From Sphingobacteriales bacterium JAD_PAG50586_3 (GTDB taxonomy: Bacteria; Bacteroidota; Bacteroidia; CAMBQF01), in NCBI GenBank assembly GCA_023213195.1, contig CP096135.1, positions 404,923 through 468,922 on the forward strand: a stretch of DNA of 64,000 nt. The letters run 5' to 3'. The position numbers and the translations under genes were made by a program. Shown piece after piece: positions 13,265-62,813 of this stretch. Below the pieces are notes generated by a model. It ran no database searches, was not told the DNA's origin, and saw only the letters and a list, made by a program, of their open reading frames with translations. Every line of letters starts with the position of its first letter. The stretch's first letter is position 1.

Positions 13265-14546
13265 ATGAAAATACTATTACTGGGTTCGGGCGGACGTGAG
13301 CACGCATTTGCATATAAACTTACGGAAAGCCCAAGCGCTTACCAAGCTTTTTATAGCTCCCGGCAACGCCGGTACAGGGCAACTGGGCGAGAATGTTGAC
13401 CTTGCCGTTACCGATTTTGAGGGCATAAAAAACTTTTGCATCAATAACCAGATAGAAATGGTAATTGTAGGCCCTGAAGAGCCTTTGGTTAAGGGCATTG
13501 CCGATTTTTTCAGGTCGGACGGCGCGTTGCAAAACATACCCGTTATAGGTCCGCGCCAAAAAGGTGCTATGCTGGAAGGCAGTAAAGATTTTGCCAAAGA
13601 CTTTATGTACCGCCACGGTATACCTACCGCCGCATACCGCAGCTTTGATAAAGAAACCCTGGAAGAAGGCTTTAGTTTTATTGATAGCCTTATGCCACCC
13701 TACGTGCTTAAAGCCGATGGACTGGCGGCAGGCAAGGGTGTGGTAATACTTGAAAACTCTGGCGAAGCTAAGGCCGAGCTTACCCAAATGCTGATGGACG
13801 AAAAGTTTGGCGCTGCCAGCCGCAAGGTGGTTATTGAGCAATTTTTGCCCGGCATAGAGCTTTCTGTATTTGTGGTTACCGATGGGGCCAACTATAAGCT
13901 GCTACCATCGGCCAAAGATTATAAGCGCATTTTTGAGGGCGACAAAGGCCCTAATACCGGGGGTATGGGTGCGGTATCGCCGGTGCCGTTTGCCAATGCC
14001 GATTTTATGGCTAAGGTGGAAGAAACCATTGTTAAGCCTACCGTTACCGGCCTGCAAGCCGATGGCATTACCTACAAAGGCTTTATTTTTATAGGCCTGA
14101 TGAATGTGGGTGGCGAGCCGTTTGTTATTGAATACAACTGCCGCATGGGCGACCCGGAGACCGAAGTGGTGCTGCCGCGCATTAAAAGCGACATTATAGA
14201 CCTGCTGGAGGGTGTTGCCCATAGCAGCCTTGATAAGGTGTACCTGGAGATTGATGAGCGCGCTGCGGCCACTGTAATGGTGGTATCGGGCGGGTACCCC
14301 GATGAGTATGAGAAGGGCAAAATAATTACCGGGCTTGATGATGTAGATAACAAGACCACCGCTTACCAGACCGGCACAAAGCTTGATGAGCATGGTAACA
14401 TTGTTACCAACGGGGGCCGTGTTATCGCCTTTACATCGCTAGCCAGCGACCTTGAAACCGCCCTGCGCCGCAGCTACCGTAATGTTGACAGGGTAGATTT
14501 TGATGGAAAGTTCTATCGTAAAGACATCGGAAGGGATGTCTTGTAA
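13265..14546 (+). CDS. purD: Phosphoribosylamine--glycine ligase, frameshift near 13331
   Basis: True start MKILLLGSGGREHA at 13265; VGPE, LEGSKDFAK, KADGLAAGKGV, GPNTGGMG, GDPE, TNGGRV. Confidence 0.97.
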
Positions 14547-14547
14547 A

Positions 14548-14575
14548 TGAAAAACGAAAAATGATAAATGAAAAA
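14548..14575 (+). repeat. Left heptamer arm of four-helix-bundle cassette
   Basis: TGAAAAA CGAAAAA TGATAAA TGAAAAA right after the purD stop. Confidence 0.75.
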
Positions 14576-14586
14576 TATCTAAACCT

Positions 14587-14958
14587 ATGAAAGATTACAG
14601 CGGCGACAATAAGCGTGTGCTGCAAACCAAATCATATTCGTTTGCCTTAAGAACTATCAAATTATATAACTATTTAAAGGAAACCAAAGCTGAATATGCA
14701 TTAAGCAGGCAATTGCTACGTTCAGGAACAGCAATAGGAGCTTTAGTTAGTGAATCTGAATTTGCTCAATCCAAAGCTGACTTTGCCAATAAATTAAGTG
14801 TATCATTAAAAGAAGCTAACGAAACACGCTACTGGCTGAGGTTAATGAAGGACAGTAAATTTATATCGGAAGAAGAATTTAGCAGTATAAACCCTGATAT
14901 TGAAGAAATAATAAAGCTTTTAGTCGCCAGTATTAAAACAGCCAAGAGAACCGATTGA
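14587..14958 (+). CDS. Four helix bundle protein (TIGR02436 / 23S rRNA IVS-protein / bAvd-like family)
   Basis: KSYSFALR, LSRQLLRSGTAIGA, EFAQSKADF, KEANETRYWL. Confidence 0.9.
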   Translation: MKDYSGDNKRVLQTKSYSFALRTIKLYNYLKETKAEYALSRQLLRSGTAIGALVSESEFAQSKADFANKLSVSLKEANETRYWLRLMKDSKFISEEEFSSINPDIEEIIKLLVASIKTAKRTD

Positions 14959-14986
14959 TTTTTCGTTTCTCATTTTTAATTTTTCA
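14959..14986 (-). repeat. Right heptamer arm (inverted relative to the left arm)
   Basis: Reverse complement reads TGAAAAA TTAAAAA TGAGAAA CGAAAAA. Confidence 0.75.
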
Positions 14987-15013
14987 TTAAAATAATTGCC
15001 TGACGGCAATTAT

Positions 15014-16248: not shown

Positions 16249-16269
16249 AGGGCACATGGCGCTACGCGC

Positions 16270-16860
16270 CACCGGGCTGTACTTTATTTGTGCGTTGCAC
16301 GTCATCCTGAACTTGATTCAGGACCTGTGCTGGCTGCGCCTGAAACCCTTGCGGCTGTAAATAAAAGAGCACGTTTTGAACCTCCGTTTTTAGGTCCCTC
16401 TCATTGAGAGCCTGTGCTGACATTAATCGTCAGTAGGTGGATGTCGCCAAAGGCGACAGACGGGAGAGGTTTTGCCCTTTCAAACTCCCCATCGCTGTAA
16501 ATAAAAGAACGCGTTTTGAACCTTTAATTTTATCTAATTTGTATTTTCCATATTCTGTCAAGTAGTTTACCCGTTTGTAAGCCTTGTGGCTGTAAAAAGG
16601 GATGCCTTTGGCATAAATAAATTTAACAAAATGTTGAGCTTGCGAAATCCCGACATTTATCGTCGGGAAACATTCATTTATAGGATTTTTAACTGGCATA
16701 GTTTAGTTGATTAAGCTCGTAGATTTTTCACCTTTCGTTTTTCATTTTTAGTTTGGCCGAAGGCCTCGCTGTTGTAGTAAAATTTTGTGTTTTTGCAGGA
16801 GATTTTTCGTTTTTCATTGTTAGTTTTTAGGCATGTCCCAACATTTATCGTTGGGGTTAT
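16270..16860 (-). repeat. Palindrome-cassette array 1
   Basis: GCTGTA-type motif at 16276, 16354, 16494, 16589, 16768 separating different hairpins; 30-bp duplicate 16354-16383 / 16494-16523 (28/30 identical). Confidence 0.7.
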
Positions 16861-16862
16861 TA

Positions 16863-16894
16863 CAAAGATACAACCCCGCCTACCCCTTTGTCAA
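16863..16894 (-). promoter_or_regulatory. Orphan promoter pointing into array 1
   Basis: Minus strand TTGACAAA-GGGGTAGGCGGG-GTTGTATCTTTGT. Confidence 0.7.
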
Positions 16895-16917
16895 CTATTG
16901 TTAATATTAAACCCTCC

Positions 16918-17023
16918 GTGGTAGGTGTTTAGCTCCCGATGTTTCGGGGGCGTCACCTACCACTTTTATTCATCGCTATTTTTCACGCCGTGGTCGGTGT
17001 TAAAGTGCAACGCCACCGACCAC
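16918..17023 (-). repeat. Two GTGG-type REP hairpins left of the RAYT
   Basis: GTGGTAGGTG...CACCTACCAC (16918-16963) and GTGGTCGGTG...CACCGACCAC (16990-17023). Confidence 0.85.
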
Positions 17024-17043
17024 TAAATTTTCCGCACTCTTCC

Positions 17044-17622
17044 CTAACTAAAATACATATTGGTTAAAAAAGACCAGTACTCATCATTCAAATTGTAAAA
17101 CGCAGCCGAACTATATTTATAATCCTCTGCTGTGTCAGCTAATTGCCATTTTTCCTGTAAAGGGTTGCGGTGTATATATTGTAGCTTTTGAGTAAACATC
17201 GGCATAGTCAATATTTCAACTGATAATGGTCTTCGCTCCCATAGCTGATATTTACGGTCTACCGCTTCAACCAAAAAGCGCTCATCTAATAAAGCTGGGT
17301 TAGTTTTTTCTAAATCACGTTTAATTTGTTGCGATGTATATTTTAAAAAGTCGCGCTGAACGGCTGACTTAGTATCAACTTCATTCATGCTCCAAATAAT
17401 GTGAATGTGGTTGGGCATTATAACAAATCCGTATACTGTTACCCGATCTTGATTGGTAAGATATATAAGGCTATATATAATGATTTCTTTGTACCTGTTT
17501 TCTTCTAAAACAGGAAACCAATTTAATATAGTCGCAGTAAAGAAATAGGGCGGGTTATGTATGTTAAATGTAGCAAGCACAAAGCAAATATAATACAGTC
17601 GGCTTTTATTGGCAGACAGCAA
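17044..17622 (-). mobile_element. REP-associated tyrosine transposase (RAYT, HUH Y1); true start may be GTG 17580
   Basis: YFFTAT, YGFVIMPNHIH (HUH), QKLQYIHRNP (catalytic Tyr), YKYSSA; flanked by REP hairpins. Confidence 0.9.
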
Positions 17623-17644
17623 CGTTCTTGGTCTCGGCTTTTAA

Positions 17645-17677
17645 GTGGCAGGTGACGTTGCACTAAACACCTGCCAC
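17645..17677 (+). repeat. GTGG-type REP right of the RAYT
   Basis: GTGGCAGGTG-ACGTTGCACTAAA-CACCTGCCAC. Confidence 0.85.
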
Positions 17678-18015
17678 GGCGTGAAAACGCAGGGCCCGGA
17701 GGAAGTGATGCTGTTTTATCTGAAATTGAAATTACGGCGCCTGTTGGTATTAAAGAATTGCTTATAATAGATAGTGGATTATTATTGTTTCCCAACCCTG
17801 CCAATACAACTATTTCAGTTGTATTGGAAAATACAGTATTAAATCCTACCTTGAAAATCACTAACATTTTAGGCCAAGTTGTATATAACCAAACTTTAGA
17901 AGGAATGCAAAAAGCATTTGGTAAAATAAATATTAGTAACTTAGACAATGGAGTTTATGTTATATCGATTAGTAACGATAAATATAGAAGTGTTTCAAAG
18001 TTTGTAAAACAATGA
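17656..18015 (+). pseudogene. 5'-truncated T9SS substrate (linker + type A CTD only)
   Basis: Frame open from the REP to ...TAPVGIKE...LFPNP...LDNGVYVI...KFVKQ*; no signal peptide or ATG. Confidence 0.65.
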
Positions 18016-19447
18016 AATTAAATATTCTAATAATCCTTTTATTGATAGTTAAAATTAACTCAGCACAGCCCATGCCCGATAGTCTGGGGCATGGGTTAAA
18101 TATGCAGGTTTCTTGTATTTATTCCGATACTGCAAATGATATAATGATAGTTGCTGGAAGTTTTACAACTGCAGACAGCAGAATAGCTGTTGGTTTTGCC
18201 AAATATAATGGCACTGTATGGGATACTACAATGTGTGGCTTCACACAAGACTGTAATTCTACTTCACCCTTTTGGGGGCAATTCACTAATGTAATAACCC
18301 CTTATAATGGGCAATTATATTTTGGCGGTGTATTTGATTGGGCAGGCGGAATACACACCGGAGGCATCGCCATGTTAGATGGCGACACCTTAAAGGCGGT
18401 AGGGGGTATTGTAATGGAAACGTCACACAACTTATAGAATACAATGGGGATTTAATTGCTGCCGGACATTTTGATACTATAGGAGGGCAAAATATAAAAC
18501 AACTTGCCCGCTGGGATGGTCAGCAATGGCATCCTTTTTATCAACCCTATATTGATACCTGTAACACTACTGTTTTTATGCCAACTGATATGGCAGTATA
18601 TAATGGAGAACTTTATATATCTGGCGGATGGATGGATTGTTATCCTGGTTTAGGTTCTTTAGTAAAATGGAACGGTAGCCAGTGGAGTGTTATACCCGGG
18701 TTCAATCTGCAAGCTCAAATAGGTGTTACCGATATCGAAGTCTATCAGGATAAATTAATTATAGCAGGCCGCTTTCATAAGCCTGGGGGCTATGAAGGGA
18801 ACTGCATTATGGCTTGGGACGGACAACAGTTCTACGACATGGAAAATGGCATTACCGCCCTTTCTACCCCTCAACAATATTATTGGGGTGGCACTAACGA
18901 TATGATGATTGTCAATGATAATTTGTTTATTGTTGGTGAGTTCATTGAAGTTGGGGGCTCTCCTATTTCGCGTGTCTCTTGGTGGGACGGAAATCATTGG
19001 TGCGGCTTTACTTGGGACTATTCTCAATACATTCCTACCGCCATAGGACACATAAACAATGATATATACATAGGCTCTGGAGCCTATAGATTTATAAATG
19101 GTATTGATTATAATTATATCATCAAACTACCATCCCTAGACAGTGCTAATATTTGTAGCGATGGCACATTGGCATCGGTTTCAACCCAACCATTCAACAA
19201 CCCAATCAAAATCTACCCCAACCCCGTTACTGATAACCTTACCCTGGAGTATAATTTAGATAAGGCAAGCAATTTCAAATTCGCGTTGTACGATGTGCTA
19301 GGCAATATAATTTATCAGGAAGAAAAGCCTAATGCCTATGGCTATTACTATTATTCAATTCCTACCCTAAACCTTGCCAACGGCCTATACATAGCCCGCA
19401 TAGAGCTTAACGGCAACAGCATGGTTAAGAAGATAATCAAACAATAA
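18012..19447 (+). CDS. T9SS type A substrate with beta-propeller-like repeats, frameshift near 18415
   Basis: Signal peptide, repeated (A/V)xW(D/N)G..W motifs, CTD IYPNP...LANGLY; AT-rich. Confidence 0.8.
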
Positions 19448-19477
19448 AAAAGGGCAAACCTTTCGGCTTACCCTTTT
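19446..19477. terminator. Bidirectional intrinsic terminator
   Basis: AAAAGGGCAAACC-TTTC-GGCTTACCCTTTT between convergent genes. Confidence 0.7.
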
Positions 19478-19499
19478 CAAATATCTTAACTAAAACCGG

Positions 19500-23365: not shown

Positions 23366-26300
23366 TTACTTGCGGCCGGTTTGTTTCCATGGGCTTTGAG
23401 CAGGTTGCGTAGCCTTAGGTACTACTTTTTGCACAGGCGCAGTTGCAGGCTTAGTAGCAGGTGCTGTAGCCGGTTGGGTAGCCGGTGCGGTAGTTGCAGG
23501 CTTGGCAGCACTGCGTGGCTGTGTAGAGTTGGCGTTTTTACTTGCCACTTCTTTAGCCTTTTTAGCAGCTGCTCTGTTTGCATCATCAGCCAAGCTTTCA
23601 GCCTCTAGTTTATCAGCTTTAGCTTTGCGGTTAGCCATTTCAACTTTCTTGTTGTTGGCATTATCTGCAGCGTTGGCTTTTATAGTAGCACCATCGGGCA
23701 CTTTAGGTGCATTAGTTTTAGCATTTTCTATTATTTGGCTAATAGCAGTTTTGCCTGTAGCCGGGGTGGCGCTGCGTGGGCTTATTAAAGCGCTTTGACC
23801 TTTAGATTTTGGTTGACCGTAAACCTGAGGGTACAAATACGTTCCTTTAAGCGGAGCTGGTTTTTCTACTTCAGGCACTACACGGTTTGCATTGGCATAG
23901 GGGTCTTGACGTATGCCTGTAATTTGCCAGCTAACTTTTACGTTGGGCTTATCGGTTTGTATAACAAAGGTATTACCATCTAACTCTTTAGCAACAATGG
24001 CTTGGGCAAAAGTGCCCATAGCGGTAAGCTGGTAGCGGAAATCTTTGTTAAGTGTAGAGAAGTAATCGGGCATGGTAACTGTTGCAAAACCGTTAGCATC
24101 GGTTACAATGTTACCATTGTAAACGTTCATCATATCGGGGCTTTCAACAAAGCTGTGGTATAGGTATTTGTTTTCGGGATCTAGGGGATGGTCTATTTTA
24201 AATGTACCACCACCCTTGGCAAGGTTGCCCAATACATCAACATCGCCATCAAAGTAGCCTGCATAACCAAACACAGAATTTCCTGATCCGGAATACTCTC
24301 CATAAACACCAATAGTAGCCAGCGGCGACCCTGCTGCTTCGTCTGCAACGCCATAAACACCAAAGTTATCAGCATTAGCAACTGGAGAGTAGGCATAGCC
24401 CGCCGAACCAATAGCTGAAGTACCTCCGGAAGATTGATTAAAACTACCGTAAGTATTTATACCTAGCCCTGCAGCATTATCAACAGAGTTTAGAACAGCG
24501 GTTGATCCGCTAGGAAAGTTAGCATTAAATTGAGTAGTTACATTAGCATTAACAACAGTATTGTAGGTTGCTACGGGGCCGTTGGCATTAACAAAAATAC
24601 CGGCAGCATTTAACTCATTAAACCCGGGACCGCTAATCTCGCTATATACACCAATATTAGAGCTAAAATCAAAATCGGTAACTAAGTTGTTGTAAGTACC
24701 ATAAGATGTAGACGAATCGCCAGAGAATATTACATTGTTATCGCCATAAGTAACGTTGTTATTGCCGGCATTTGCAAGAAATATTTTGTTGCTTCCGTAG
24801 GTAACGTTATTACCGCCACCTAAAAATACGGTTGCCTCGTTTACTGCTATGCTATTACCTGATGTAGCAAAAATATTATTTCTATTACCTAATATAGTAC
24901 TGTTGTTATTAGTAAAGTAAACATTATCGGTACCCAATAAAGAGTTATTATCTCCGGTAGTAGACAATGCTGCACGGTTAGCAGTAATTGTGCTATTAAG
25001 CCCACTAAATAAACTAAAGTTATTACCATCTATAGTAGAATTGTCGCCTACAAAAATACTAGCGTCGTTTAGTTGCGCATCTGATGCGATACCGAAATCA
25101 ATAAACGTTGAAAAAGACCTTACAAGAGCACTATCAACAGCTCTAAACTCATTGTCTATACCGTATATTTGGTTGTTAGGGCTGCTATCAAACAACTCTA
25201 TATCGTTGAAGATGCCTTTAAATACAGAATTGTTTCCATCAATATCGTTATAAAAGCCCCAAACTTCAGAACTGTCGCCATTAATATCACCGTCTAAACC
25301 ATAAATTCGGTTTCCGTTATTGATATCAAAATCAAAGCCTTTTTGGCGGTCTTGATTATCACCAACAAACATAGCCAGGTCGAAACCAACAGCTGTTCCA
25401 CTGGCACCTCCGTTAGTAGATAATTCAATGCCTACTAAATCAGAATTATCTCCACCATTAACATTAACACCTATACCGTAGTAGTTATTATCTTTAAAGC
25501 TAGGGTTATCTACCCTTAAACCATAATAACCACCGGTAAACTCACCACCTATACCATAATAATCGCCGGTAAACGAAGTACCTTCAACAGCAATAATATC
25601 ACTGATAGTAGACGAGTCAGGGTCTAGCTGTGGCCCTGTGTAAACAAAAGAACCAATAGTGGGGATGTTACTGTTTAATGTAAAAGTTGTATCTGAAGTA
25701 GCCCTAAATATATAGTCGTTATTTTTATTACGATAGAACACTTCCATTTGCGATGCTGCGGGCTGAGCGTTAGTGCCTATGCCAAAATTGCCATTTACAC
25801 CCACACGGGCAGCTTCTGTGTTATTAGTGCGGAAAACCAAGTCTTCTCCATCTAAGGTACCAATAAAGTTTATAGAGTCGTTAGTGGCGGCATTGCCTGT
25901 GGTTAACCAACCGTTAGATACAGCAGCAACGGTGTCGGGTTGCCATGATGCAAAACCGTTAGCGTCTGATTTTAGAACATAACCAACAGCCTCGTTACCA
26001 TCGGTATAACGGAAAGAGCCGTTAACATCTAGCTTAGCTTGTGGTAGTTGATTGTTAATACCAACAAAGCCACTGTCTGGGGTTATTACCATCTCAAAAT
26101 TTGGATTTTGGTCAACCCCGGCATCAAAAACCAAAGTTTTAGGAACTAAACCAGAGAAACTGGCACGGCCAATAACCGCATCTAAGCCGGTACTATCGTT
26201 TATAAAGAAGAAGGCTGAGTATGAGGTATTAGTATCTGGCCTGTTTTGCAGCACAAATGTGTTTGCAACCCCACCTTGGAAATAACCGGTTGTAGAAAAC

Positions 26301-28903
26301 GCATTGGTATCAACCACACTTAGTTTAGCTAAAAATGGGTTGGTAGTGCCAATGCCAACATTACCGTTAGTAGAGTAGCGGGCAACTTCGTTATTGTTAG
26401 TACGAACAACAAAATCAATAGAGTCTGTAGTACCAATAAAATTAGTAGAAGCATCAGTACCGGCATTGCCTGTAGTTAGCCAAGAACCTGAAACAGTGCC
26501 TGCAGGTTGCCATGTAGCATTACCGTTAGCGTCTGATGTAAGTACATAGCCAGCTGCCTGGGTACCATCTTCTAAACGGAATGTACCATTTAAATGCAAT
26601 GTTGCCGTAGGGTTAGTAGTACCAATACCAACACCATTGCCATTGTCAAATATTTGAGAGTCGCCTAACGTTTGTCCATCAGGGGTAAACTTAGGAATGT
26701 AGTTAAGAGTGCCGTTTATATTAGCCGCACCGGTTGGGCCGGTAACGCCTGTAGCACCTGTTGAGCCTGTTACACCAACTCCAGTAGGACCTGTTGGGCC
26801 TGTTGCACCATCAAGACCGTTTAATCCATTTATACCGTTTGTACCGTTAGCTCCGGTTGGGCCGGTTTCGCCTGTTGCACCTGTAGCACCTGTTGCGCCA
26901 TCAAGACCGTTTATGCCGTTTGTGCCATTAGTGCCTGATGGGCCTGTTACACCAACTCCAGTAGGACCTGTTGGGCCTGTTGCGCCATCAAGGCCGTTTA
27001 TACCGTTTGTGCCGTTAGCACCTGTTGGGCCTACTGGGCCCTGTGCACCTACGCCTACTTTATGTCCGTTAAAATAACCCGAGAAAATAGTTAGGGTACT
27101 TAATGTTGTATTGTTAACCTCTACAGTTACAACATCGCCTGCTGTAAGTTGTACATCGGCCGATAAATCTAATGCCTGAAGAGCACCACCGCTGCTATAA
27201 TTGGTGGTACTTTGGTTTACCGTAACTCCGTTATTTTTCAAATAAGTAATCACTCCACCTACCCCACCGGTAAACGCATCAATTTCTACATCAAAGTGAT
27301 ACAATCCGGTTTCTGTGCAAGTAAATTCGCCTGTGCCATTATTAAATAGTGCGCCTTCTATATAAACAGTTGTTGGGAATAGTATAGTTGTAGTAGAATT
27401 TGAATTTACGGTAGAAATAGCTGCCGTAGCTTTAAAATCGGCGTTACTGCCTGCCGGGCCTGCAGGGCCTGTTGGGCCAGTTACGCCTACACCTGTAGGA
27501 CCGGTTACACCAACACCTGTTGGACCAGTTGCGCCTTGTAAACCAACACCTGTTGGGCCGGTTGGGCCGGTTTCGCCTGTTGCACCATCAACACCGTTTA
27601 TACCGTTAGCGCCTGATGGGCCTGTTGGGCCGGTTTCGCCTGTTGCACCTGTAGCACCTGTAGCGCCATCAAGACCGTTTATGCCGTTTGTGCCATTAGC
27701 GCCTGATGGTCCTGTTACACCAACTCCCGTAGGACCTGTTGGGCCTGTTGCGCCATCAAGGCCGTTTAATCCATTTATACCGTTTGTACCGTTAGCTCCG
27801 GTTGGGCCGGTTTCGCCTGTTGCACCTGTTGGGCCTGTTGCGCCATCAAGGCCGTTTAATCCATTTATACCGTTTGTACCGTTAGCTCCGGTTGGGCCGG
27901 TTTCGCCTGTTGCACCTGTTGGGCCTGTAGCACCATCAAGGCCGTTTGTACCGTTTGTGCCATTAGTGCCTGATGGGCCTGTTACACCAACTCCAGTAGG
28001 ACCTGTTGGGCCTGTTGCGCCATCAAGGCCGTTTAATCCATTTATACCGTTTGTACCATTAGCGCCTGTTGGACCTTGTGGGCCTTGAATACCCTGTAGA
28101 CCGGTTGCTCCGGTAGCACCTGTTGCTCCGTCAAGACCGTTTACACCATTAGCGCCCGTTGGGCCTTGTGGGCCTTGAATACCCTGTAGACCGGTTGCTC
28201 CGGTAGCACCTGTTACTCCGTTTATTCCGTTTGTGCCATTAGCTCCGGTTGGGCCTTGTAAGCCTTGTGGGCCTTGTGCACCTGTTGCGCCTGTAGCACC
28301 GTTCAATCCATTTGTACCGTTAGCTCCGGTTGGGCCTTGTAAGCCTTGAGGGCCTGTTAAACCCTGAACTCCTTGCGGGCCTGTTGGACCCTGGGTGCCT
28401 TGGGGACCTTGAATTCCCTGCGCACCTGTTGGGCCGGTTAAGCCGTTAGTACCGTTTGTTCCGGCAGGGCCGGTTATACCTTGTGGACCTGTTGGGCCTG
28501 CCGGGCTATTATTAGCATACAGCGCGTAGGGTACACTTATTAGTTCTGATACGCCAGCTACCGTATAGGTAGTGCCGCCCGTAGGGTCAATCTCGGTTCG
28601 GATGTATTTGCTGCCGCTGCCCCAGGCTATAGAAGCAAAATTGCCGCTTGTTACCGTACCATCGCCCACCTTTAGGTTGAATAAACCAAAGGGGTTGGTG
28701 GTTAAACTGTGGGTTTCCTGATACACAATGGTACCTCCGGGAGAGCCATCAACTATACTTAACCGAACGCCAATGGGTTGGTTAGGCAGTTCTGCTCCCG
28801 ATGGGTTACGGGCAATTGCCTGGTAATTAAATTTTTGCGGGGCTTGTGCGTTTGCGCTCAAAGCAAAGAACACAATACTGAATATCAGTATTAGTTTTTT
28901 CAT
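23366..28903 (-). CDS. 1845-aa collagen-like fibre protein (fibre 4)
   Basis: Signal peptide; NYQAIARN...SVPYALYA N-domain; two Gly-X-Y tracts around a C1q-like domain; GIGTTNP tail-fibre-like repeats; [14 protein letters not shown]-domain; Lys/Ala/Pro tail; no T9SS CTD. Confidence 0.85.
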
Positions 28904-38263: not shown

Positions 38264-38359
38264 TATTCAGAGGTCAGTAGTCAGGGGTCAGTAATAAGAC
38301 TATTGCCACATTATATTTAAACCCTCATCAGCAATGGTGGGGGTTTTGTTTTACCAACT

Positions 38360-38412
38360 ATCCCCTAAAATAGGGGAGTACGTCCCGGTAGCAATCGGGA
38401 CGGGAGGGGGTA
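38360..38412 (+). repeat. Family A palindromic element
   Basis: TCCCCTA-AAA-TAGGGGA followed by GTCCCG...CGGGAC and GGGAGGGGG. Confidence 0.7.
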
Positions 38413-38456
38413 TAAATATCCTATATGTGTTATTTGTTTTTGTTACCTTTATAATA

Positions 38457-39413
38457 ATGAAACGCCTGCTATTAATAATTGCCTTTGGGTTTTGCACTTA
38501 TATTAACAAAGCACAAACCTATGTTCCTTTCCCAACATCAACAGATAATGCTGTATGGAATATTTCTTCATCGTCGCACGAAGGGACATGTCGATTTTAT
38601 GATTTATTTATTACGGGCGACACAACAATACATAACAAAAGCTACGTAAAGCTAGGGTTTCGTGGCATTATTTATCTATGGAACCCCGATATGGAACCTT
38701 GGTGCAGTGGTGTAGCCCCTGCTTACTCTTTTAGTACAAAACGATACGCATACCGAGAAGATTCAACCCATAAAATATATTTTCGTTCAATTAGTCACCC
38801 AATATATGATACAACAGAGTTTTTACTATTTGATTTTGGTATGCAGGTTGGCGATAGTTTAAAAGGCTATTTTTCACAACAAAATTTTGGTATAATACCA
38901 ATTGTATCCAGTATTGATTCTATTCAAATTGACAATAATTGGCGTAAGAAATTTAACTTCAAAAACGGTTTTGATACCCTAGAAGGTTGTTTTTACCTAA
39001 TAGAGGGGATAGGCACTAATATGGGTTTTTTAGATATACAAGGTTGTCCATTTTTTGAAAGTTCGACAACATTAAATTGCTTTAAACGGTATGAGGTAGT
39101 TATTTGGAATAATAGTAATTCCAGTTGTAGCGATTACAGCTTTATTAATTCAAACAAAGAGAACCTGCTAAATAATTTACATATAGCAATATACCCAAAC
39201 CCTGCACAAGATTTTGTGAATATAGAACTACCCCAAAGCTATAACCAAGCCAGCCTTAATATTTATAACCTAACAGGTCAGCTAATTTCTCAAAAGCCAA
39301 TAACATCAACCCAAATACCTATTGCAGAGTTGGGTAATGGTATGTACATCTTTGTCATTCAAAATGGAGATAAGGTTATAGGCAGGCAGCGGGTGGTAGT
39401 GGTAGCGAGGTAG
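38457..39413 (+). CDS. T9SS type A substrate of unknown function (AT-rich)
   Basis: Signal peptide from ATG 38457, YVPFP start, LIEGIG motif, IYPNP...LGNGMY CTD. Confidence 0.8.
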   Translation: MKRLLLIIAFGFCTYINKAQTYVPFPTSTDNAVWNISSSSHEGTCRFYDLFITGDTTIHNKSYVKLGFRGIIYLWNPDMEPWCSGVAPAYSFSTKRYAYREDSTHKIYFRSISHPIYDTTEFLLFDFGMQVGDSLKGYFSQQNFGIIPIVSSIDSIQIDNNWRKKFNFKNGFDTLEGCFYLIEGIGTNMGFLDIQGCPFFESSTTLNCFKRYEVVIWNNSNSSCSDYSFINSNKENLLNNLHIAIYPNPAQDFVNIELPQSYNQASLNIYNLTGQLISQKPITSTQIPIAELGNGMYIFVIQNGDKVIGRQRVVVVAR

Positions 39414-39419
39414 GGTCTT

Positions 39420-39700
39420 GCTATTTCACCTCTCCCCCGACAATCCAATAAATTGTATTGCCTTTCCCCCTCTCCCGTGGTGAGAGGGGGCTACATTTCA
39501 TAAATCCTATTTATCATATTGGTGGACAAAGGTGTATTGAGGGTTAGAGCCTCAACCCCAGCCCCCTTTTAGGCACCAACTGACGACTTGTGTCAGGATT
39601 TACAACCCTAGGGAAACAATACACACTCCTTTATTCTACTTTGGGGTAGTTACCACAAAACTCCCCGCCCTTCGGGCACCCCCTCTTGGAGGGGAATTTA
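39420..39700 (+). repeat. Palindromic-element cluster upstream of the orphan promoter
   Basis: 39428-39475 duplicates 40207-40252; 39660-39696 matches 39828-39866 and, inverted, 49978-50017. Confidence 0.7.
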
Positions 39701-39736
39701 TTTAAGTACATTTTATTAACAATATTTATTTTTTAC

Positions 39737-39788
39737 TTGACAAATGGAGATTAAATGTTGTATCTTTGTGGTGTTATTCGAATAGCAC
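39737..39788 (+). promoter_or_regulatory. Orphan promoter plus palindromic operator-like site, pointing into array 2
   Basis: TTGACAAA-TGGAGATTAAAT-GTTGTATCTTTGT, then GTGTTATTC-GAATAGCAC (39771-39788, one mismatch). Confidence 0.7.
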
Positions 39789-39799
39789 AATATTAATAG

Positions 39800-40680
39800 T
39801 AAAAAAACAAAAAACTGCCGCGGCAAACCTCCCCCGCCCTAAAGGGCACCCCCTCTATGAGGGGGACAAATAAGGGACAGTACCTACAATGCTTATTACG
39901 ATTCAGAATGATGGTTTAATGATGGCCCCACCCCAAACCCCTCCCCCAAGGAGAGGGGCTTAAAAAAGGCCTTTAGAATTTAAGAGAAATAATTTAACAA
40001 GAGGACAAGCTTCGCAATGGCTAAGACCAGCCGAGCTTTTATAGCGGTGCCATTGGTCAGTTGGTAAATTGTTATGATAAGTGTTTGTCACCAATAGGTG
40101 GTTTGCGAAAGCGGGCTGCCTAAAGGTGTTTCATGCCTTCGGCAAACTAAAAACGAAAAGTAAAAAATGAAAAATAACTTTATCGGCTACTGCCTGCGGA
40201 GATTTAACCTCTCCCTGACAATCCAACAAGTTGTATTGTCTTTCCCCTCTCCAACGCGTGGAGAGGGGTGGCTGAAAGCCGGGGTGAGGTACCCGCAAAA
40301 TAACCTCATCAGCTACTGCCTGTAGGTGTGTAGTAACCACCCAATTCTGACTTATACAGTCAGAATTACCCCTCCTTAAAAAGGAGGGGAGTTAAAATAA
40401 TGAGCCGCGAAAACGAGTGCATTAGCAACATGCTGTAAGGGTTTGGTGTATCCCGAGATCCCGCATCAAGTGCGGGATGACAATCGTAGCAAAAGGGTGA
40501 GCAGAAATGATGTGGTTTGCTACTGCTTGTAGTACCTCCCCTGCCCCCTCCTAAATTTAGGAGGGGGTGGCGCGGCGAGTGCCGGGGTGAGGTATCCCCC
40601 GACGATGAATGTCGGGATGCTACAAAAGTGGCACGCGAAAACGAGTGTATTAACTACTGCCTGTAGGGGTTGGGGGCAAA
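39800..40680 (+). repeat. Palindrome-cassette array 2
   Basis: (G/A)CTACTGCYTGTAG-like motif at 40186, 40312, 40425 (degenerate), 40519, 40653; each interval holds a different hairpin. Confidence 0.75.
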
Positions 40681-40681
40681 C

Positions 40682-40711
40682 AAAAATCCCCGCCGAAGGG
40701 CGGGGATTTTT
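40682..40711. terminator. Bidirectional terminator
   Basis: AAAAATCCCCGCC-GAAG-GGCGGGGATTTTT. Confidence 0.8.
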
Positions 40712-40757: not shown

Positions 40758-41876
40758 CTATTCAGCAATAAGCAGTTTGCCGGTTTTAATTATGGCACCT
40801 TGCTCGTTAGCTACGCGGTACATGTAAGCACCTGCAGTTAAGCCGCTAACGCTAATGGTGTTTTGGCTTGCTGTAAGCATGTTAGAGCTTACTGTGCGGC
40901 CTGTAGCATCAAAAATAGTTAGGGTAGCTTCGCCTTTAAGGTCTTTAACAAATACGTTTACTAAGCCCGATGTTGGGTTAGGGAACAACTGTACGTTGTT
41001 GTTGGTGTAAATGTCTTCTTTAGTGCTTAAAGTGGCAGGGTCGGCCTGGTAACGCATAGAGCTAGGTGCACCGTTAGCATCAGTGCTAATGTCGGCAACA
41101 TAGTATTTAGCGTTGGTACCAAAGAAACGGTAGTTGTAGGTAGTTTCTGTAGTTACAGCACCGTCTAAACCAACAAAGCCTGCTACAATGCCTGGAAGCA
41201 ATTGCCAGCCTTGTTGTATGCCAAAGGCAATGTTTGCATTGGCTGCATATACCCAAATAGAGTCTATTGTAGTTTGTACAACCCTATCGCGCACAACCTG
41301 GTAGGTACCTAATGGAATGGTTAAAGAACCATCGGCATCAAAGTTATGGTTGGTGTAGAAAGTACGTTTAACACGGGCAGAATCTACAAAGCCCTGGCCT
41401 ACAGCAGTAATGTCTAATGTCTCGTCAATTTGAGAAGTATCGGCATAAGTAAGGCCTATTTGAGCAGGAAAACGGATAATGTCTTGTGTAGGATTAAAAT
41501 CGGCTACTACAGGAAAAGGGGCACCTTCTAAGTTACCGGCAACGCCTAATACTTTAACGCCACTGGCGCTTTTGTCAATATAAGCATCGGCACCCAGTTG
41601 AGGGAAAGAGATATTGGCTGTAGGAAAAGCAGCTGCATCGGGTAAAGAAGCAGGGTCTATAAAGTTAAGGGTTTCAACCTCGTCAACTGTAAGGTCGCTA
41701 AAAACCCAAGTTTGACCAGATGCTGCAGCACCAAGGTTAAGGGTAGGTAACACGGTGTCTCGGCCCACATAAACCACATCGCCAATAACGGCAAAATCGG
41801 CTTGGGTAATAACCACCTGTGCATTTGTGGCAAAGGTTGCAAGTATAACACCTGCTGAAAGTAAAAACTTTTTCAT
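40758..41876 (-). CDS. T9SS type A substrate of unknown function
   Basis: Signal peptide ...TNA-QVVITQAD; GTLTIPLGTY-like segment; LFPNP...LTAGAY CTD. Confidence 0.85.
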   Translation of the reverse strand: MKKFLLSAGVILATFATNAQVVITQADFAVIGDVVYVGRDTVLPTLNLGAAASGQTWVFSDLTVDEVETLNFIDPASLPDAAAFPTANISFPQLGADAYIDKSASGVKVLGVAGNLEGAPFPVVADFNPTQDIIRFPAQIGLTYADTSQIDETLDITAVGQGFVDSARVKRTFYTNHNFDADGSLTIPLGTYQVVRDRVVQTTIDSIWVYAANANIAFGIQQGWQLLPGIVAGFVGLDGAVTTETTYNYRFFGTNAKYYVADISTDANGAPSSMRYQADPATLSTKEDIYTNNNVQLFPNPTSGLVNVFVKDLKGEATLTIFDATGRTVSSNMLTASQNTISVSGLTAGAYMYRVANEQGAIIKTGKLLIAE

Positions 41877-49936: not shown

Positions 49937-50111
49937 GTCGCAGGTGACGTTTCACTGAACACCTGCCACGGCAGGAAAATCCCCCTCTAAGAGGGGGTGC
50001 CCGAAGGGCGGGGAGTTTTGTTTTTAAGCAGTACTAACATGCACCCACCACCCCTTTCTCCCGACAACCTATGGTGTCGGGATTCATTCCCTCCTTTGCA
50101 GGAGGGGAGCC
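49937..50111 (+). repeat. Cluster of GTGG-type REP and two family A elements
   Basis: 49937-49969 matches 17645-17677; 49978-50017 and 50041-50111 are family A hairpins. Confidence 0.8.
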
Positions 50112-56898: not shown

Positions 56899-59713
56899 TT
56901 ATGGCTTAACTATAAGAATGTTAATTCGTAAGTTTTGTGTTACAGAGTTAGTCTCGTCTAGGAATATCTCAAACGATGTTGTGGTAAGATTCCTGATAAT
57001 AGGCGATTCAAAATCATTATCATCGTCAGCATTGCCTAAGCTGGTAAACGATAGCATTGGAATATACGTTGTAGTGCCTTGGTCGGCAAAGTTAACGGTA
57101 ATGGTAGACCTGCCGCTATTGTTAGTTTTTGTTGCTGATGTAATGCCACCTGCTACGGTAACAGCAGTACCTGCATTAATATCAGAAATAAGAACAGTAC
57201 CTGCAACAGTTTGAATAGCAGGGCCTGTTGGGCCTTGGGCACCTTGTGGACCTGCTACACCCTGAATGCCTTGAGCACCTTGTGGGCCTACTGCACCATC
57301 GTTACCTGTTGGGCCAATTGGACCTTGAGCACCGGCAGGGCCGGCAACACCTTGTGGGCCTTGGGCACCGGCAGGGCCTTGCGGACCAACTGCACCATCG
57401 TTACCGGTTGGGCCTTGCAAACCTTGTATGCCTTGTATACCCTGTATACCTTGTGGGCCTTGAGCGCCTTGTGAGCCTTGAGCACCAGAAAGGTTGCTAA
57501 CTACTATGCGTGAGCCCGGAAATGCGGTTTGGAAATTAATATCTACAGGATTAGAAACATCGTTGTGCCAAACATATATTTCAAAATACTCGCCGTTTTG
57601 TAATACTATATTAAAGTTAACGCTACTTGCGGGCACATCAGTATCTGGGCCGTCAAAACTTAAAATACCATAACGGTCGGTAAAAACGTTACCATTTTTT
57701 GCACCAAAGGCATAGCGGCCTGTTCCGGGAGTAGGCAATGCGCTCCAGGTTATAAATGATGATACATTTAAAACCAACACATCGCCACTGGTATTGATAA
57801 ATTTAGAAGCTCCATCGTATGTTAATCCGCTTACTCCGTTAGAGTTAGCAGCATCCAAATTCTCCCAAAAAACAGGGGTATCAATGCCATCTGCAATACC
57901 TTGTGGGGTAACATTAGCGTAAGCTAAAGTAGCAGCTGTACCAACGGGGGCTGCAGGGCCTGTAGGACCTGTAACACCAACACCTGTTGGGCCTGTTGGG
58001 CCAGTAACACCATCGGCACCATTAGCACCGTTGCTTCCTGTTGGGCCGGTTGGGCCTGTTGCGCCATCGGCACCGTTAGCGCCGTTAGCACCATTATTTC
58101 CTGTAACACCTGTTGGGCCTGTTACACCATTAGCACCATCGTTACCTGTTGGACCTGTAGGGCCGGTTACTGATGGTAAAGGTTGCCATGTAGCAACACC
58201 CTGGTTGTTAGACGATGTTAATACATAACCCGTTTGTGCACCTTGTGGAAGAACTACATTGTTACCAAAGAAAACATTATCGCGGGTAAAGAAACCCCAG
58301 TAGCGTTGTTGCGCATCGCTATAAGCCATAAAAGCCAAAGTAGGGCCACTGTCGCCATTGTTTAAACGGCCAACAACACCTGCACTGTTAGCAAAATCGC
58401 CATAGTTGCCACCGTAAACACCGGCGCTGTAGTTGTTGCCATACCAAGAGTAACCTTTAATAGCAGCATCAACACCACGTACAGCCCAGCTAGAGCCACC
58501 ATCAGTTTCGTTAAAAGAACCCTGGCGGTAAGCAAATATATTTGAGTGACCATCACCAAAATCAGTACCCGGACGCTCAACATAAACGCGTGTTTTGTCA
58601 GCACCACGTACTACTGCAGGTTGATCTGGGTTTACTACGTTTACTTTTACAACGCCTTCTACCATTAAACCATTTACAGGTGCGGCAGAGTTAGCAAAGT
58701 TTTGACCAATAGAAACATTACCACCAACGCTAAGTTTACTTGCAGGGGTAACGTTGCCAATGCCAACATTAGCGCCGTTGTTGTAGATATTGCTGCTGGT
58801 TGTTACCCATGCAGAACCATTCCAATAAGGAGTATCACCAGCTGAGTCGCCATCTTGTAATAAACCTGTTGGGCCTGTTACACCTGTTGCTCCATCAGCA
58901 CCGGCAGGGCCTTGTGGGCCTACTGCACCATCGTTACCAGTTGCACCTTGTGGGCCAGCTGGGCCTTGGGCACCGGCAGGGCCTTGTGGACCTACCGCAC
59001 CGTCGTTACCTGTTACACCTTGTGGACCAGCAGGGCCTTGAGCGCCGGCAGGGCCTTGTGGGCCTACCGCACCGTCGTTACCTGTTGCACCTTGTGGGCC
59101 TTGTGGACCAGGGTCGCCTTGCGCACCGGTAGCACCATTAGCACCGGCAGGGCCTTGCGGACCTACGCTACCTGTTACACCTTGTGTGCCTTGTGGGCCT
59201 TGAATACCTTGTGGACCTGTTGGGCCTACCGCACCATTGGCACCGTTAGCACCGTTTATACCTGTTGGGCCTTGCGGACCTGTTGGGCCTTGGCTACCGC
59301 CACCAGAGTTACCAGCATAAATAGCGTAAGGAACGCTGATTAACTGGCTTGTACCTGCTACTGTGTATGCGTTACCGCCGGTAGGGTCAATCTCTGTTTT
59401 AATGTATTTTGCACCGCTACCCCAGCCAATGTTGGTAAAGGTGCCTGTTACTACAGAACCTGTACCAACTTCAAGGTTAAATAAACCGTAGTTGTTGGTG
59501 GTTTTGGTGTGGGTTTCCTGATACACTACTGTGCCACCGGGAGAAGCATCTAAAATGCTGATACGGATGCCAATTGCCTTAGCCCGTTATCTCTGCTCCA
59601 CCAGCATTGCGTGCAATGGCCTGGTAGTTAAATTTTTGTGGCGCCTGCGCGTTCACAACAAAAGCAAATAGCATAAGCAACACTATTGCTTTTAATGATT
59701 TGGAGATGTTCAT
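56899..59713 (-). CDS. Collagen-like fibre protein 2, frameshift near 59580
   Basis: Manual start [36 protein letters not shown] at 59713; three collagen tracts; NVGIG tail-fibre-like segment; C1q-like middle domain; small beta-rich tip. Confidence 0.85.
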
Positions 59714-60713: not shown

Positions 60714-62813
60714 TTACCATGAAATAATTACTAAACCATTACCAGTGTTGTAACCACCGGTGTAAGTAATGCCAGATGAACCTGATGGGGTTACATAGCT
60801 GCTACCGCCGCCGCCGCCGGCATAAGCACCTGCGCCGCCACCGTAGTAGCCGCCACCGCCGCCACCGCCGCTGTTGCCAAAGTTAGATTGTAAGCCGTTA
60901 GCATTACCACCTTGGCCAAATGAACCAGATTCGCTTTCAAAGCCAGGGTATGTAGAACCAGAACCTGGGCCAGACTGTGTAGCACCACCACCATTAAATT
61001 CAATAATGCCAGTACATTCAACACCATCAAGACCTGCAGGGTAGCCACCGTTACCGCCATCGCTACCGGTACCGTCAAAGCAGTTAAAGCCTGCACCGCC
61101 ACCACCACCGGCAACAACAAGACGGTCGTTTAGTGTGTTTCCGGCAGTTCTGATATCAGAAGCGCCGCCGCCGCCGCCGCCTTGAAGGAAATTGGAACCA
61201 TTATTAAAGGTTTCAGCATCGCCACCACCATTGTAGCCCGGAGTTAATGGTGCACCTTTGCCACCAACGTAAACGTTTAATATTTGGCCCGGTGTTACAG
61301 TTAAAGTAGCTTGAGTACGGCCACCAGCACCCGGGATGTTTGTATTAGGGTCTCCACCTGCATTGCCACCACCTGCAGCAATAACATCAACAACAATAGA
61401 TGTTATACCCGCCGGTACAGTAAATGTTTGAGGGGCACCGGTAAAGTTAAATGTTTGTGAACCCGGAGGGGTTGTAGTAACAATTAGGGTACCGCAGGTT
61501 GAATACCAATCGCCACCAAAATAGTAGTTAGGGCAACCTGTAGTTATGTTGAAAATATATAATCCATCAGCAGGAGATGCTATAGCATCGCGTTGAGCAT
61601 CTGTTAAACGTGGCATTAAGAAACCGCGGGTAGTAGATGTAACATCTAAAGCAGCAGAAGCAGCAGGAACAGCAGCACCTACTGAAAGTTGGTTATTGGT
61701 TTTGTCGTAAGTAAACTCACCATCAGCACCGGCAGCGCCGTTATCGTTAAAAATAACCTGCTTATCAGTACCCGCTACAGGGCCTGTAGCACCGGTTGCA
61801 CCCGGAGCACCTGGAGCACCTGGAGTTCCCGGAGCACCCGCAGGGCCAACAGGACCTTCTGCACCGGCAGGACCAACAGGACCTTGAGCACCGGCAGGAC
61901 CGGCAGGACCTTGAGCACCGGCAGGGCCAACTGGACCTTCTGCACCGGCAGGGCCAACAGGGCCTTGAGCACCGGCAGGACCGGCAGGACCTTGAGCACC
62001 GGCAGGGCCAATAGGACCTTCTGCACCGGCAGGGCCAACAGGGCCTTGAGCACCGGCAGGACCAGCAGGACCTTCTGCACCGGCAGGACCTTGAGCACCG
62101 GCAGGGCCTTGTGCACCATCAGCGCCATTAGCACCGGCAGGGCCGGCAGGGCCTTGAAGACCTTGAGGGCCTTGAGCGCCATCAGCGCCATTGGCACCGG
62201 CAGGACCTTGAGCACCATCGGCACCGGCAGGACCGGCAGGGCCTTGAGCACCATCGGCACCGGCAGGGCCTTGCGGGCCTACGCTACCTGTTACACCTTG
62301 TGGGCCTTGAATACCTTGAGGACCTGTTGGACCTACTGCGCCGTTAGCACCGTTAGCACCGTTTAAACCTGTTGGGCCTTGCGGACCTGTTGGGCCTTGG
62401 CTACCAGAGTTACCAGCGTAAAGAGCATAAGGCACGCTTATTAACTGGCTAGTGCCAGCTACAGAGTATGTGCTACCGCCTGTTGGGTCAATTTCTGTTT
62501 TAATGTATTTACCACCTGTGCCCCAGTCTATAGAAGAAAAAGTGCCTGAAACAACAGAACCTGCGCCAACTTCAAGGTTAAATAACCCGTAGTTGTTGGT
62601 AGTTTTGGTGTGGGTTTCATAGTACACTACTGTGCCACCCGGAGAGCCATCTAAAATGCTGATACGGATACCAATTGCCTGGCCCGTAAGCTCTGCTCCA
62701 CCAGCATTGCGTGCAATGGCCTGGTAGTTAAATTTTTGTGGCGCCTGCGCGTTCACAACAAAAGCAAGCAGCATAAATAATGCCAGTGCTTTTAAGGTTT
62801 TTGTGATGTTCAT
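60714..62813 (-). CDS. Collagen-like fibre protein 1 with Gly-rich tip
   Basis: Signal peptide; shared N-domain; GPA/GAQ collagen with 81-bp unit x3 (61841-62083); TTRGFLMPR segment; TFTVPAG...AAGGG...GNGLVIISW Gly-rich domain. Confidence 0.88.

Follow-up and report, generated by a model that had tools for sequence, protein, structure and literature searches.

The NIMEs of Neisseria are built from 50-150 bp RS units separated by a 20-bp dRS3 repeat. The dRS3 repeat is palindromic, occurs hundreds of times and is targeted by both a phage recombinase and the Ssn nuclease (PMC11893778). By analogy, these mosaic elements, together with the BIMEs of E. coli and the large REP clusters (PMC3733652), are the closest analogues of the two arrays that we describe in the window, the whole 64-kb stretch of DNA analysed here. 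As in BIMEs and REP clusters, which are intergenic and often sit between convergent genes, short conserved motifs here alternate with palindromic units and are reiterated in tandem, composition varies between strains, and the genome has a RAYT gene with flanking REPs; as in NIMEs, the intergenic arrays consist of variable segments of 50-150 bp with a short conserved repeat between them and occupy isolate-variable regions, where the repeats can serve as recombination homology. This combination of a short motif and variable repeat units in an intergenic, strain-variable array is that of a mosaic cluster of the BIME/NIME kind. Unlike BIMEs, however, the conserved unit is a non-palindromic ~40-nt module found in few copies and only in the arrays, the hairpins come from several unrelated families, and the arrays stand behind a strong promoter, to which array 2 adds an apparently structured core; unlike dRS3, the module is asymmetric, has few copies and is without a known enzyme. 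What sets the arrays apart from these analogues is a module that is asymmetric and low-copy, a strong promoter and, in array 2, a candidate structured core. A survey of REPs found only CGTC-tagged REPs in Bacteroidetes, with GTAG-tagged REPs not reported there (PMC3733652).

The explanation that we favor, and to which we would give an even chance, makes array 2 the 3' tail of a non-coding locus of ~940 nt that is accessory, is driven by a promoter, is remodelled by recombination and is probably transcribed. The window has a G+C content of 44% and many genes with type IX secretion tails, and no tRNA genes were found in its 64 kb. Array 2 occupies a 1345-nt gap between convergent secretion-tail genes (38334-39413 on the + strand and 40758-41876 on the - strand), and its intervals are without a plausible ORF, having only short ones that read through hairpin repeats. 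The gap contains the following features:

39415-39700, no strand: dispersed hairpin repeats 5' of the promoter
39711-39778, + strand: promoter block, with an AT-rich upstream part that includes ATTAACAAT
39737-39744, + strand: -33 element TTGACAAA
39761-39768, + strand: -7 element TATCTTTG
39771-39788, + strand: palindrome GTGTTATTCGAATAGCAC (inverted repeat I21)
39878-40135, + strand: conserved core, a candidate structured RNA, from the alignment with L145; its blocks are, in order, CACCTACAATGCTTATTACGATTCAG, AGAATTTAAGA, CAAGAGGACAAGCTT, TTGGTCAGT, GTTATGATAAG, a 12-bp hairpin with a GAAA loop, and GTGTTTC
39923-39972, no strand: REP-like hairpin CCCCTCCCCCAAGGAGAGGGG, inserted in the core
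40135-40177, + strand: capped hairpin GCCTTCGGC, then the A-rich heptamers CTAAAAA CGAAAAG TAAAAAA TGAAAAA
40169-40209, + strand: module U1
40213-40294, no strand: interval 1, a CCCCTCTCCA..TGGAGAGGGG hairpin and TGGC..GCCGGGGTGAGGTA
40296-40334, + strand: module U2
40343-40389, no strand: interval 2, two hairpins, AATTCTGACT..AGTCAGAATT and CCCCTCCTT..AAGGAGGGG
40407-40447, + strand: module U3, with the degenerate junction CAACATGCTG
40458-40478, no strand: interval 3, hairpin ATCCCGCA..TGCGGGAT
40501-40537, + strand: module U4
40544-40620, no strand: interval 4, a CCCCCTCCTA..TAGGAGGGGG hairpin and GGGGTGAGGTA, then a CCCGACGATGAATGTCGGG hairpin
40635-40674, + strand: module U5
40682-40711, no strand: two-way intrinsic terminator AAAAATCCCCGCC-GAAG-GGCGGGGATTTTT (inverted repeat I7)

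The transcript would start at ~39773 from a near-perfect housekeeping promoter, with the palindrome GTGTTATTCGAATAGCAC as a stem-loop at its 5' end, and would stop at the terminator, which array 2 has in common with the convergent gene 40758-41876. The folded core of ~250 nt would come first, broken here by one hairpin repeat insert, followed by the tail, where the low-copy module alternates with GC-rich hairpins belonging to multi-copy repeats scattered over the genome. Compared with shuffled sequence, the whole predicted transcript folds much more stably (z = -7). A search of RNA-seq runs gave no usable one that contains the locus, and in one metatranscriptome the neighbouring genes were present and the array was not seen.

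Both arrays have the same promoter, as the earlier note had pointed out: TTGACAAA-N12-GTTGTATCTTTGT is found at 39737-39769 (+) and at 16862-16894 (-), its 21 fixed bases occur exactly twice in the 64 kb and never in shuffles, and the upstream ATTAACAAT is also common to the two. The Bacteroidota promoter consensus has TTTG at -33 and TANNTTTG at -7, with a G at -5 (PMC6847099), and the array promoters show the sigma-A features of the phylum (TTTG/TTG at -33 and TAnnTTTG at -7, with the usual spacing) in the arrangement TTGACAAA-N12-GTTG-TATCTTTG. Judged on sequence, the array promoter is a near-perfect form of the -33/-7 housekeeping consensus of Bacteroidota, and it is the published position of the -7 element from which the transcription start given above is predicted. 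This extended form accounts for two of the 15 loose promoter matches in the window, both of them in front of the arrays, and the promoter block recurs in at least three other contexts on metagenome contigs. A promoter-motif scan of one genome per species identified at least 114 loci; the matches listed span >100 Bacteroidota genomes (Bacteroidales, Flavobacteriales, Chitinophaga, Saprospiraceae and others), with single genomes among the matches listed that carry four to six exact copies. At 70 of the 104 usable sites among these matches an ORF of at least 60 aa starts within 100 nt downstream, 16 of the 70 beginning like queA, and other sites among them precede an rRNA operon and tRNA genes. 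The earlier note had named a promoter motif common before ordinary genes as telling against its reading, and on this point the reading fell: the exact motif is common before ordinary genes, tRNAs and the rRNA operon across Bacteroidota. In this phylum the optimal promoter is repeated to the letter ahead of housekeeping genes, so finding it in identical form at two loci says little about a link between them, and sharing such a generic element ties the arrays to no special mechanism. We also observed letter-perfect TTGACAAA-N11/12-GTTGTATCTTTG before queA-like genes (M..KLSEFNFDLP) in many distant Bacteroidota, at loci including L005, L011, L028, L035, L054, L059, L072, L082, L094, L096, L105 and L110.

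The core aligns with that of L145, the orthologous locus of a close relative in which the promoter block is also kept, as near-identical blocks with variable stretches between them, and the hairpin insert at 39923-39972 is absent at that position of the core in L145. A consensus fold of these two sequences has 37 pairs, of which 30 are unchanged, three have a change on one side, four are compensatory and none is broken; in addition, the loop of the 12-bp hairpin changes from GAAA in the window to UACG in L145 (GNRA to UNCG). The core had no family match in Rfam, and Rfam searches of the window, L145, L140 and L049 at gathering and permissive thresholds gave nothing meaningful, the sub-threshold matches being to whalefall-1 only and on hairpin repeats. 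With two sequences compared, the core looks like an unannotated structured RNA. To our knowledge, the non-coding RNAs of Sphingobacteriales are almost unstudied, and if the locus is transcribed it would represent an unannotated structured RNA together with a new modular repeat architecture for this group.

Judging by its alignment, the real signature of the arrays is the ~40-nt module and not the promoter. Five copies of CTACTGCYTG had been proposed as junctions of array 2; four of them are exact (40187, 40313, 40520 and 40654, each one base later than first given), and the fifth, near 40427, is the degenerate variant CAACATGCTG. In the window the exact motif occurs four times against 0.21 expected, all in array 2 and none elsewhere. 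A longer motif said to be common to the arrays, AAAACG-N11-12-TACWGCC, is indeed exact once in each, at 16353-16377 (-) and 40638-40661 (+), against 0.02 expected, and the remaining array units are looser versions of the same module, the consensus of which runs CAAAAC, a T-rich stretch, (C)TAC(A/T)(A/G)C and then (A/G)GGG(G)TTT. The junctions of arrays 1 and 2 align with repeats in L140, L049 and L145, three other genomes in which the modules are likewise present. Our alignment comprises 16 copies from four loci, with two more in L145 spotted by eye; the module core TTTACTACAAC is invariant in the window, L140, L049 and L145, a sub-type ..AAATTTTACTACAAC.. is almost invariant across these four genomes, and TAC is kept in 15 of the 16 aligned modules, U3 having AAC. 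All copies are co-oriented with the promoter, and in an nhmmer search with a profile of the 16 copies, covering the window and ~140 other loci, no module turned up away from the arrays. The best-conserved part of the tail is U5 with the terminator, with 77% identity to L145 over 104 nt.

Several identities for the module were tried and rejected. A folded RNA motif was discarded since the alignment has no consensus pairs, that is, no conserved secondary structure of the module was detected in it. Inspection by eye disposed of a degenerate promoter copy, a sigma-54 site, a tRNA T-arm and a Cas12a/Cas13b repeat, since spacing or complementarity fails and L145 does not keep the stem of array 2. 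Scanning metagenomes for tandem CTACTGCYTGTAG yielded 25 loci, every one an unrelated satellite or coding repeat.

Any function of the locus would lie at the RNA level. Such a role is suggested by the modules being co-oriented with the promoter, conserved across genomes and, as single-stranded stretches, predicted to be displayed between stable hairpins; this would fit repeated binding sites, which are one possibility. CsrB/RsmZ and CrcZ are multi-site titrating RNAs, and like the arrays they have paralogous loci, a shared promoter type and a species-variable number of repeats, with a repeated single-stranded motif between stable hairpins and an intrinsic terminator at the end. There is, however, no sequence relation and the module is far longer than the GGA/A-rich motif of these RNAs, and any likeness would be functional only. 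We know of no Csr or Hfq partner to be expected in this phylum.

The second locus, array 1, and its neighbourhood contain the following features:

16249-16894, - strand: array 1, between a DUF6427 gene and a RAYT gene, with a homologous array in L140
16862-16894, - strand: array 1 promoter
16755-16796, 16481-16520 and 16337-16380, - strand: array 1 modules
around 16724-16828, - strand: array 1 heptamer arms; hairpins lie between these parts of the array
16918-17677, - strand: RAYT block with its own REP hairpins, adjoining array 1
16918-16963, 16990-17023 and 17645-17677, - strand: RAYT-flanking REPs GTGGNNGGTG..CACCNNCCAC
17523-17948 and 18012-18437: overlapping ORFs of the block
18338-19447: secretion-tail gene

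That the two window loci have one architecture, as the earlier note had it, was borne out: each has the promoter block, a capped A-rich arm and same-strand modules alternating with hairpins, and the architecture recurs in L140, L049 and L145. The capped heptamer arm, GCCTTCGGC(C)AAACTAAAAA, was found at 40135-40153 (+) and 16745-16764 (-) and nowhere else. Array 1 is a paralogue of array 2, with which it has in common the generic promoter, the module family and the A-rich arm, and not the core. In L140, a homologous six-module array lies upstream of icd and runs into the icd start.

The array 2 site was compared with its counterparts in relatives, where its size rises with the similarity of the flanking proteins: 49 nt at 78% identity (L148; a homologous terminator only), 240 nt at 86% (hairpins only), 1014 nt at 89% (L145; promoter, core, two modules and terminator) and 1345 nt, with five modules, in the window. 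Empty, small and large states of one site in close relatives make this a tractable case of the origin and turnover of a mosaic cluster. The earlier note had named a fixed cassette content as telling against its reading, and the content is not fixed, as it differs between close relatives. For instance, on contigs from three wastewater metagenomes these building blocks are arranged differently; an exact one-unit deletion from 40185 to 40312 (126 nt, with eight ambiguous bases) is seen in one variant, and U4 is repeated in tandem in another. Many of the joints fall at module edges, namely at 40174/5, 40333, 40397/8, 40443/4, 40497, 40531/2, 40634, 40647 and 40671/2; those between relatives lie at module edges or inside identical stretches and are not demonstrably at TAC|WGC, and none of the joints needs a cut at TAC. 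We favor, though conditionally, a tail that would grow, shrink and be reshuffled by unequal or homologous recombination between modules, with dispersed hairpin elements inserting into it, much as in BIMEs and NIMEs; unequal recombination and repeat insertion explain the data as well as a dedicated capture mechanism does. One further joint, 39700 to 40647, was considered as a sign that a 95% strain had lost the promoter and array entirely. This reading was then downgraded, as the left side of the joint is only 27 nt of a dispersed hairpin, the contig is short, and the core is present in these runs at ~97% identity.

A serious rival, possible in our estimation but doubtful, is a neutral pile-up of REP- and MITE-like repeats in a permissive gap between convergent genes, with a selfish module, no functional RNA and a promoter that was brought in by a repeat and is under no selection for a role. 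Other cases of large mosaic REP clusters are on record (PMC3733652). The array 2 locus is absent in the 78-86% relatives, and it is therefore dispensable and could be a neutral accumulation of repeats; in a relative at 78-83%, neither array site is occupied. The recurrence of the promoter block in several contexts points the same way, as do the hairpins, which are also found outside the part predicted to be transcribed, at 39415-39700: the copy at 39435-39489, upstream of the promoter and without an adjoining module, is the same element as that inside the array at 40213-40268, and the hairpin at 39655-39699 has a reverse-complement copy at 49977-50021. The earlier note had assigned a different hairpin family to each interval, which holds in part; the same composite family, made of a CCCCTC..GAGGGG hairpin and, after it, TGGC..GCCGGGGTGAGGTA, is found in both interval 1 and interval 4 (repeat families D5 and D10), and the CCCGACGATGAATGTCGGG hairpin of interval 4 is also in array 1, at 16647-16667. 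In metagenomes the hairpin inserted in the core has a depth of 22-46 against ~5 for the flank, and interval 2, the highest-copy piece, reaches 64-104 in two runs and 25-46 in a third, again with a flank of ~5. Hairpin pieces reach up to ~20x the depth of the flanking gene and module pieces U3-U5 2-4x, with U1 and U2 near zero; the hairpins are therefore dispersed repeats of high copy number and the modules low-copy. What a neutral pile-up accounts for poorly is that the core is conserved with compensatory changes, that in four genomes the low-copy modules are restricted to arrays and point strictly the same way as the promoter, and that the window and L145 still share the promoter, core and terminal module despite diverged surroundings.

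Separately, the CCCCTC..GAGGGG and GGGGTGAGG hairpins matched the Rfam family whalefall-1 (RF01762) at 17-23 bits, against a threshold of 37, at 40206-40271 (-) in the window, 1732-1795 in L140 and 6010-6074 in L145; whalefall-1, a metagenome-only motif, may be a repeat of the CCCCTC..GAGGGG kind.

The RAYT gene beside array 1 bears on a further explanation, that hairpin cassettes are taken up serially by a HUH/RAYT enzyme at a single-stranded TAC|WGC inside the module, each insertion regenerating the target so that head-to-tail arrays grow downstream of the promoter. We consider this unlikely. Its best point is adjacency: an apparently intact RAYT gene (ORF 17044-17622, gene about 17044-17580) adjoins array 1, with both its HUH motif, NHIH, and its Tyr motif, YIHRNP, intact and a match to NCBIfam NF047646 just below the cut-off (78.2 bits against 80; E-value 6e-22), and in L140 a RAYT that is 80% identical adjoins the same promoter type and the homologous array. 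We know of no activity for the Bacteroidota RAYT class, for which array 1 would offer a concrete substrate. The modules all lying on one strand, as a single-strand mechanism predicts, the near-invariant TAC (15 of 16 aligned modules) and a unit number that differs between relatives also favor capture. The protein fits RAYT subclass 2.6 (Bertels group 5), a mostly Bacteroidetes group of ~179 aa with NH[LIV]H and YIH[QN]NP motifs (here YIHRNP), the genes of which stand between atypical secondary structures that are also found at other places in the genome (PMC6006769). That description is of a gene with flanking hairpins, and promoter-driven module arrays are not described there (PMC6006769).

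Against capture, the REPs that flank the RAYT gene follow the pattern GTGGYMGGTG..CACCKRCCAC, also seen in L140-L143, and this family of GTGG..GGTG/CACC..CCAC hairpins is absent from both arrays, whose hairpins are of other families (CCCCTC..GAGGGG, CCCGAC..GTCGGG and similar). The array repeats therefore fall outside the family of the RAYT, which has its gene and its own REPs as expected of such a unit. Moreover, RAYT orthologues at 50-59% identity have REPs and lack modules and arrays; no RAYT was seen among the surrounding window ORFs scanned near array 2, among the called genes of the ~9 kb L145 locus or in the ~2.4 kb around the L049 array; the same hairpin elements are found without an adjoining module; the joints, at module edges and in identical stretches, are those that plain recombination gives; and a single-cassette unit was not found. 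The earlier note had argued from the shared architecture to a dedicated capture mechanism, which stays conjectural given the generic promoter, the foreign REPs, the arrays without a RAYT and the joints away from TAC|WGC; of its suggestion of RAYT involvement, the position of the gene directly beside array 1 and its L140 counterpart stands, and the role as capture enzyme is unsupported. A bolder form of this idea, in which the module is the recombination site of a single-strand, RAYT-type 'REP integron' that strings hairpins head to tail behind a strong promoter for expression as a changeable library of REP-derived RNAs, seems to us quite improbable. The arrays do not have the make-up of an ordinary integron, with an intI integrase, an attI site and gene cassettes bounded by attC: no integrase was detected among 18 window ORFs scanned against Pfam, and the intervals are without a plausible ORF.

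The RAYT unit itself may be mobile. In L140 (1529-3113) the REP-RAYT-REP segment lies the other way round with respect to the promoter and array beside it, and the locus is at another genomic site, which suggests that the unit flips or moves. In the window, 16249-19499 (3251 nt) holds array 1, three REPs, the RAYT gene, two overlapping ORFs of unknown function and a secretion-tail gene; L150, from the same sample as the 78% relative, has 66 nt between DUF6427 and RNase G in its place, and the whole block is therefore an insertion/deletion difference. In L142 (2695-3742), an IS110-family transposase gene immediately follows the REP after the RAYT gene; some IS110 elements target REPs.

Near this block, a four-helix-bundle gene (14546-14990; TIGR02436, with a weak Avd-like match) directly follows the purD stop codon and has inverted A-rich/T-rich heptamer arms on its two sides (14546-14577 and 14957-14990), like those of both arrays. 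Because L150 retains the left arm without the gene, the gene and its arms have the look of a small cassette capable of insertion. With nhmmer, no homology between the module and the start of this gene was recovered.

That the modules encode short peptides (..YCL or ..NML and a stop in array 2, VQNVRFILQ and a stop in L140) is very improbable: a stop codon directly follows four of the five array 2 units and three of four in L140, and two differences between L140 units are synonymous, but a 1-nt indel shifts the frame between module types, the upstream 'proteins' are translated hairpin repeats and the differences within array 1 are non-synonymous, and we rejected the coding reading on the ground that the aligned modules do not maintain one frame. 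A degenerate or orphan CRISPR-like array is effectively refuted: the array 2 junction CTAC-N5-GTAG after an A-rich stretch presumably resembles type V-A repeats, and U2, U4 and U5 are superficially like the Cas12a repeat stem, but this stem is not kept in L145 or array 1, which removes the resemblance, the repeats are only 65-88% alike in place of near-identical, the uneven 'spacers' (58-98 nt) are made of genome-wide hairpin repeats, the junctions match no CRISPR repeat family, and no Cas domain was found in the 18 window ORFs scanned against Pfam.

Two further observations concern other repeats. On two metagenome contigs, L124 (3434-3627) and L135 (7481-10663), there are 52-nt tandem repeats, CTACTGCCTGTAG..CCTTCGGC..GGGCAGTAAG.., which are unrelated to array 2. 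In the window, three large ORFs (23366-28903, 56899-59526 and 60714-62813) contain many collagen triple-helix repeats, one with a C1q domain and another with an ALK/LTK glycine-rich domain, and are unusual bacterial collagen-like proteins.
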